28,437 bases of DNA from the IMG/VR virus record IMGVR_UViG_3300026224_000011, positions 1 through 28,437 of that record; one strand, written 5' to 3'. The DNA is from a virus. Taxonomy: Duplodnaviria > Heunggongvirae > Uroviricota > Caudoviricetes. The translations under genes and the position numbers were made by a program. The notes under the pieces are model-generated. The model did no database searches. It was not told the origin of the DNA and worked only from the letters and a program-made list of their open reading frames with translations. Positions 14,780 through 14,825 of this stretch are shown in pieces. Numbering within the stretch: the stretch's first letter is position 1; every line of letters begins with the position of its first letter.

Positions 14780-14825
14780 GACCAAAACACTACTTTTGGC
14801 AGACCAAAACATATGTTTTGGTCTG
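14780..14825. promoter_or_regulatory. operator-like array: 26-bp perfect palindrome plus an extra direct half-site
   Basis: cagaccaaaacatatgttttggtctg at 14800-14825; GACCAAAACA at 14780-14789 and 14802-14811, inverted copy at 14814-14823. Confidence 0.45.

Follow-up and report, generated by a model that had tools for sequence, protein, structure and literature searches.

A conserved tandem palindrome at the head of the gemA block of Mu-like Escherichia coli prophages: a candidate RNA leader

The short gap in front of an early gene encoding a 92-aa protein in a Mu-like prophage holds a real, conserved, single-locus cis element that heads the block formed by this gene and gemA. The element is of a familiar kind. 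We tentatively read it as a cis-acting RNA leader whose competing folds would govern how the downstream message is translated or processed, or how stable it is, a proposal in which our confidence is limited.

Sequence and setting of the element

The window, that is, the whole 28,437-nt stretch of viral DNA analysed, corresponds to a Mu-like prophage of E. coli whose genes lie on the minus strand. The features on which the argument relies are the following.

22740-23390, plus strand: repressor-like gene
22335-22571: Ner/SfsB-like gene
20293-22335: transposase gene, named from a 97%-identical annotated relative
19381-20274: B-like ATPase gene, named from a 97%-identical annotated relative
14857-15111, minus strand: small accessory gene upstream of the element, phrog_8391
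14827-14856, minus strand: A-rich 5' flank of the element (ending in AAATAACAATCAAGC), in which TAAyCAA is partly conserved across unrelated upstream contexts
14799-14826, minus strand: first palindrome, GCAGACCAAAACATATGTTTTGGTCTGC, perfect over 28 bp
14780-14799, minus strand: second, imperfect dyad, GACCAAAACACTACTTTTGG, offset by 22 bp from the first palindrome
14498-14776, minus strand: gene for the 92-aa protein, phrog_7844, no Pfam family
14131-14526: GemA gene, PF06252
13796-14134: gene for a 112-aa protein
13761-13788, minus strand: canonical intrinsic terminator downstream of the 112-aa gene, made up of an A-tract, a 12-bp stem and U6
13229-13696: gene for a Mor-family activator

The first palindrome is the longest perfect one in the window, with an arm of 14 where 60 dinucleotide shuffles gave maximum arms of 7 to 12; a 28-bp palindrome is beyond chance. 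A reading made earlier from the sequence alone (hereafter the sequence-only reading) had described cagaccaaaacatatgttttggtctg at 14800-14825 as a perfect palindrome, which holds, except that one more pair on each side brings its length to 28 bp. The same reading had correctly pointed to a further copy of the half-site, GACCAAAACA, at 14780-14789, 12 bp before the next copy. This copy does not stand alone, however, and forms one arm of the second dyad, which has the form CCAAAA-N6-TTTTGGTC (TTTTGG arm) and shares 80% identity with the first dyad's core. On its 3' side the second dyad has the arm TGTTTTGGTC (14780-14789, or -13 to -4 relative to the ATG at 14776), which exactly repeats the corresponding arm of the first palindrome and overlaps the ribosome-binding region of the 92-aa gene, whose ATG follows the end of the dyad after 3 nt. 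The 80-nt gap between two same-strand genes is filled by the element. It is not the only sizeable gap of the early region, as had been claimed, since ORF-based gaps of 80 to 99 bp are also found at 13697-13795, 16307-16400, 17569-17648 and 17967-18055.

Read along the sense strand, the element consists of four segments: H1 (GACCAAAACA, -47 to -38), a loop, H2 (TGTTTTGGTC, in RNA UGUUUUGGUC, -35 to -26), H3 (CCAAAAG, -23 to -17), a spacer, and H4 (again TGTTTTGGTC, in RNA UGUUUUGGUC, -13 to -4), followed by ATT (AUU in RNA) and the ATG of the 92-aa gene, which lacks a good Shine-Dalgarno sequence (UUUUGGUCAUUAUG). In the minus-strand sense RNA, the first palindrome gives a 12-bp stem with a 4-nt loop at -50 to -23, comprising six G-C pairs and a GC-rich base. 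The start codon of the 92-aa gene was fixed by alignment across lineages (MKIEQ...). An in-frame ATG at the centre of the palindrome (14812, 104-aa ORF) was rejected as start codon because it is lost or shifted in several variants.

Three same-strand genes lie directly downstream of the element in a conserved order, with the 92-aa gene at the head, followed by gemA and the 112-aa gene. The canonical terminator at 13761-13788, 1 kb downstream, is likely the 3' end of the transcription unit to which the element belongs. Between this terminator and mor lies a strong sigma-70-like promoter on the minus strand (TGTACA-16-TATAAT, 13753..13726, 10/12), with an 8-bp palindrome, CTGTACAG, over its -35; mor seems to have its own promoter here, unlike in Mu, and the early operon seems to stop before mor. 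A perfect hairpin with 12-bp arms (AAAAGCCCCACC..GGTGGGGCTTTT, 13236-13261) overlaps mor at its 3' end and, with A- and T-tracts on both sides, resembles a bidirectional terminator. A GC-rich hairpin with 12-bp arms (CTGCTGGGGGTG-N5-CACCCCCAGCAG, 12867-12895) occupies the gap between a 95-aa gene and the holin genes and, like the element, has no sense-strand T-run. Two further features of the window were recorded. An AT-rich palindrome with 11-bp arms, CGTTTTTAAAA-CCC-TTTTAAAAACG, is found at 4901-4925 in the late region, near the junction of the genes at 3675-4862 and 5017-5568. A stretch of about 210 bp at 15453-15669, overlapping an Ead/Ea22-like gene (15653-16306), shares 87-90% identity with lambdoid, Stx-converting and P1-type phages and looks like a small module common to unrelated phage groups.

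Distribution, linkage and conservation

The element was found in 58 of 5426 complete E. coli genomes, at 79 places of which 2 are on plasmids. It occurs once per prophage and precedes the 92-aa gene in all 58 genomes. E. coli strains E2348/69 and STEC313 are among its carriers. An exact-pattern scan of IMG/VR returned 12 loci, 11 in the same context and one a chance match; two further protein-based scans of IMG/VR added no loci, and scans of genomes and metagenomes yielded no additions beyond loci of the Intestinirhabdus and E. coli types. A search for the half-site elsewhere, as the sequence-only reading had proposed, found no other copy, either within the window or across a complete relative of 37.8 kb, and the same was true of the dyad. 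With one locus per prophage and a constant context, a dispersed palindromic repeat (REP/BIME-like or otherwise mobile) was rejected. Two 249-kb E. coli plasmids, NZ_OZ547097.1 and NZ_OZ547049.1 (L062), carry the element together with the 92-aa and GemA genes, which suggests a Mu-like prophage inserted in a plasmid. Furthermore, two decayed prophage copies with frameshifted 92-aa genes (L007 4001-4312 and L011 4001-4435) were observed, the palindrome being intact in one and carrying a 1-nt deletion at its centre (CATATG to CATAG) in the other.

At least four unrelated upstream genes adjoin the element, and the 92-aa gene is the only one that always accompanies it. Where the window has its upstream gene (14857-15111), other prophages have unrelated ones, which places the element at a mosaic boundary. 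Comparison of window positions 14834-15320 with loci L002, L012, L030 and L038 showed wholly different genes directly upstream, in at least four contexts, and the break in homology about 25-75 nt upstream of the palindrome marks a swap point for accessory genes. The element could serve as a linker at a module boundary or for recombination, or be a palindrome that plays no part in regulation and is kept since exchanges occur alongside it; at least four unrelated upstream contexts join within this distance of the palindrome. We consider this improbable. The junctions fall upstream of the shared A-rich flank and not at the palindrome itself, the arms are as constrained as non-synonymous sites while nearby neutral sequence varies, a compensatory change is present, and the two-unit design persists in distant relatives.

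Conservation was assessed on 20 distinct E. coli-type variants. Among these, 6 of the 38 arm positions are variable, mostly as singletons; the adjacent 92-aa gene varies at 56 of 93 third codon positions versus 17 of 93 first or second positions, and arm variation is about as low as that of non-synonymous codon positions. The loop (-36 to -34) and the spacer of the second dyad (-17 to -14) are freely variable, and in the second dyad the arms are invariant and the 4-nt centre varies in every column. The changes that do occur in the arms largely preserve pairing on the sense strand: E2348/69 carries GCAGACCAAAAA-GTAT-TTTTTGGTCTGC, a compensatory change from C-G to A-T (A-U in RNA) at pair -39/-34; four substitutions (-49 C>T, -46 A>G, -39 C>T and -23 C>T) all give G.U pairs; and -50 G>A and -34 G>A or G>T affect only the outermost or the loop-closing pair.

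Relatives whose 92-aa proteins are 63-75% identical were found in Leminorella, Intestinirhabdus and metagenomic contigs, including one P22-like contig in which the 92-aa gene precedes a terminase gene. All of them carry a weaker element of the form CCA-N12-TGG, N4, CCA-N12-TGG, followed after 2-10 nt by the ATG, with CCAAAATAACCGGAATGG as second unit, inside which lies a GGA Shine-Dalgarno sequence. Their hairpins are short (5-8 bp) and occupy the same place, with weak fold z-scores of -0.5 to -2.5, and in some divergent lineages the units lie partly within upstream coding sequence. The motif is absent from the regions upstream of 92-aa homologues with 32-40% identity. Given the weaker elements of the relatives and the lack of the motif upstream of these homologues, the double palindrome in its perfect form belongs to the E. 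coli lineage and elaborates a looser pattern of greater age.

Competing RNA folds and alternative readings

According to the reading that we tentatively favour, the element would be a leader inside the long early transcript of the prophage, belonging to the 92-aa gene that follows. Two folds may compete since H2 and H4 are identical. In fold 1, the 12-bp H1:H2 hairpin would form beside a weak H3:H4 stem, leaving the ribosome-binding region only lightly paired. In fold 2, H1 would pair with H4 (10-11 bp) around an inner H2:H3 hairpin (6 bp), burying positions -14 to -4. The balance between the two would set the amount of 92-aa protein made from the distal early mRNA, and could be shifted by protein binding or by RNase III or RNase E processing. 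As an interrupted helix of about 20 bp, fold 2 would be an RNase III-type substrate; after an RNase III cut, fold 1 might cap the upstream fragment. We infer that transcription passes through the site, that RNA and not DNA is the active form, and that translation or stability is affected; read-through across the element is presumed by analogy with Mu and from gene order.

Several observations bear on this proposal. The sense RNA folds with z-scores of -3.9 to -5.7, at about -22 kcal/mol for the whole 68-nt leader, and folds 1 and 2 lie 0-4 kcal/mol apart in every variant, the minimum free energy structure flipping between them. Such near-equal energies arise automatically with tandem dyads and are therefore not independent evidence. 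Across the variants, 97.8% of cells are paired in fold 1, with one compensatory pair and four wobble changes (4-5 wobble changes when both folds are counted); the cells left unpaired on the sense strand belong without exception to the outermost or loop-closing pair, whereas interior pairs are broken on the antisense strand. Fold 2 has 99.1% of its cells paired in the sense orientation versus 95.4% in the antisense one. The sense strand is thus favoured only modestly, and covariation is not significant for either fold, the observed values being reached in 74-174 of 500 shuffles for fold 1 and in 500 of 500 for fold 2. H4 occupies -13 to -4 on the gene's own strand, in its ribosome-binding region, and the canonical terminators of the phage look different and sit elsewhere; both points count in favour of a leader, as do the constrained arms, the strict linkage to the 92-aa gene and the lack of a sigma-70-like promoter common to the upstream contexts. 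On the other side, the divergent relatives keep what looks more like a sequence motif (CCA-N12-TGG twice, 22 bp apart) than free covariation, and an Rfam search at the site with E <= 1 gave no family match.

The sequence-only reading had left open whether the palindrome is an operator or a structured control point within the transcript. The second of these fits somewhat better, but an operator is a serious competitor. Here, a sequence-specific regulator would occupy the two dyads as two dimers, the candidates being the 92-aa protein, GemA, the 112-aa protein and a host factor, and would either repress a local promoter or stop elongation into the 92-aa/gemA block. Perfect dyad symmetry with a second dyad in helical phase (22 bp being two turns) is the classic geometry of such an operator. 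The half-site sequence (ACCAAAA / TTTTGGT) is kept in both units beyond mere complementarity and partly kept in the relatives, in the register given above, and the arms are fixed while the central spacers vary. A repressor-independent promoter is presumed near gemA, and this too was counted for the operator. However, no sigma-70-like promoter is common to the four upstream contexts: the best scores were 9/12 in types A and B, at differing positions, and at most 6/12 in type C; an activator-dependent promoter is conceivable. Moreover, the window and the complete related prophage contain no further site, the motif is unrelated to the Ner/repressor operator region, and the adjacent 92-aa protein, whose predicted fold resembles eL38, shows no recognisable DNA-binding signature. 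Conservation with complementarity at 28 of 28 positions goes beyond what a protein normally reads, and at the inner end of the arms position -34 is variable although the base symmetric to it hardly changes. We therefore regard a DNA operator as possible but rather unlikely.

More specific operator identities were rejected. The c-ner region carries repeats of the GGATAACAC type and of the CTTTCTT type, which differ from the element and rule out Ner/repressor specificity. In that region, a near-palindrome, TATCCGTGCGGATAACAC / GTGTTATCCCTTCGGATA, lies at 22590-22629 just upstream of the Ner-like gene, with CTTTCTT/AAGAAAG repeats beyond it towards the repressor gene; together they are probably the early operator region. 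A Mor/C-type activator site would be a dyad centred about 43 bp upstream of the start, at several late promoters. The motif is absent from late-gene intergenic regions, and there is no room for a Mor/C promoter because only 3 nt separate the second dyad from the ATG. CAGACCA, the 7-mer at the outer end of the palindrome, occurs 17 times in the window versus about 3 expected from shuffles. Of its 12 copies in ORFs, ten read in frame as the codon pairs GGT-CTG or CAG-ACC, and those between genes have no broader motif in common, so it was dropped as a binding motif; the excess looks like codon-pair bias.

Termination was considered for both strands. The absence of a flanking T-run, stated in the sequence-only reading, is right only for the minus strand, the sense one. 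Read along the plus strand, the hairpin precedes GCTTGATTGTTATTT and was flagged as terminator-like. A sense-strand intrinsic terminator was rejected: the stem-loop is there, but the sense strand continues with CCAAAAGUAGUG and has no U-tract, and the element is not at the end of a unit, the canonical terminators being those at 13761-13788 and 13236-13261. A plus-strand (antisense) intrinsic terminator would stop antisense transcripts arriving from the direction of gemA and mor, or form the end of a short RNA antisense to the start of the 92-aa gene. On that strand the 5' flank of the element becomes a U-rich tail after a GC-based hairpin in every context (GCUUGAUUGUUAUUU, AUUUGAUUAC, UUUUGAUUAU or UAUUGGUUAUUAUUU), and the tail TTGATTA is conserved despite differing upstream genes. 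We nevertheless hold this to be very improbable, as a search upstream found neither a promoter nor a gene on the plus strand, substitutions in the arms disrupt interior pairs of the antisense and not of the sense hairpin, and the second dyad and the strict linkage to the 92-aa gene would be left unexplained.

The constant linkage makes the 92-aa protein an apt candidate for binding the element. Its family is very small, with 11 matches at E <= 1e-3 among 1.84 billion cluster representatives. The predicted fold is alpha/beta, and the closest structure is ribosomal protein eL38; similarity to the NCBIfam ParC (partition-associated) family is weak and below threshold. No HTH, RHH or other DNA-binding signature was found in the protein, and a search of PDB sequences with the family profile gave no match. 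The double palindrome might be a bistable RNA operator bound by the 92-aa protein itself, a candidate that we consider a long shot.

Comparison with known systems and significance

Phage Mu offers a close analogy for a leader of this kind. In the com-mom operon of Mu, a stem-loop sequesters the start region of mom, and Com binds the mRNA and opens the stem-loop. The element belongs to the same phage lineage and likewise places a hairpin at the ribosome-binding region of a downstream gene in a polycistronic mRNA, and an alternative RNA structure would, by analogy, be the switch. The two differ in sequence, genes and position (the element is in the early region, com-mom at the right end), and no Com-like zinc-finger protein is present here. 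At the equivalent place of the early region, Mu itself has a hairpin upstream of gemA (GGCGGTG-TTGCAG-CACCGCC, NC_000929 8193-8212), also without a sense-strand U-tract and about 20 nt before the gemA ribosome-binding site. The sequence of the Mu hairpin is unrelated and GC-rich, however, the Mu gap holds the antisense gp15, and Mu has no 92-aa gene. No homologous element was found in the corresponding gap of Mu.

RNase III processing signals are known from the early polycistronic mRNAs of phages, as in the R1.1-type sites of T7 and the N leader of lambda. The element resembles them in being intercistronic in a long early transcript and in fold 2, whose helix of about 20 bp has a small internal loop and a tetraloop at its top. 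A hypothetical cut would, by analogy, release the ribosome-binding site of the gene downstream, while the upstream fragment would end in a 3' hairpin. It has no sequence similarity to these signals and no Rfam match, and its stems are A-U rich. Finally, the tandem operators of temperate-phage repressors, of the lambda OR1-OR2-OR3 type, are typically 14-18 bp long. The spacing of dyad sites about two helical turns apart (22 bp here) is shared. In contrast to these operators, the element has no overlapping conserved promoter, occurs at one locus per genome and has no identifiable HTH partner, and its perfect symmetry extends over 28 bp, longer than the typical 14-18 bp.

Should the element prove to be an ordinary hairpin or an operator, the gain would mainly be the annotation of a rare prophage group present in about 1% of complete E. 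coli genomes. The element also marks where these prophages swap accessory genes, and is a compact natural case of two predicted, competing RNA folds. If the 92-aa protein does recognise the double palindrome as RNA, it would be a new kind of translational autoregulator of phages, or a new processing adaptor, that gates entry to the gemA block where the early operon ends. More broadly, a conserved control element at the entry of the gemA block offers a handle on the poorly understood regulation of the semi-essential early region of Mu-like phages, and of gemA especially.
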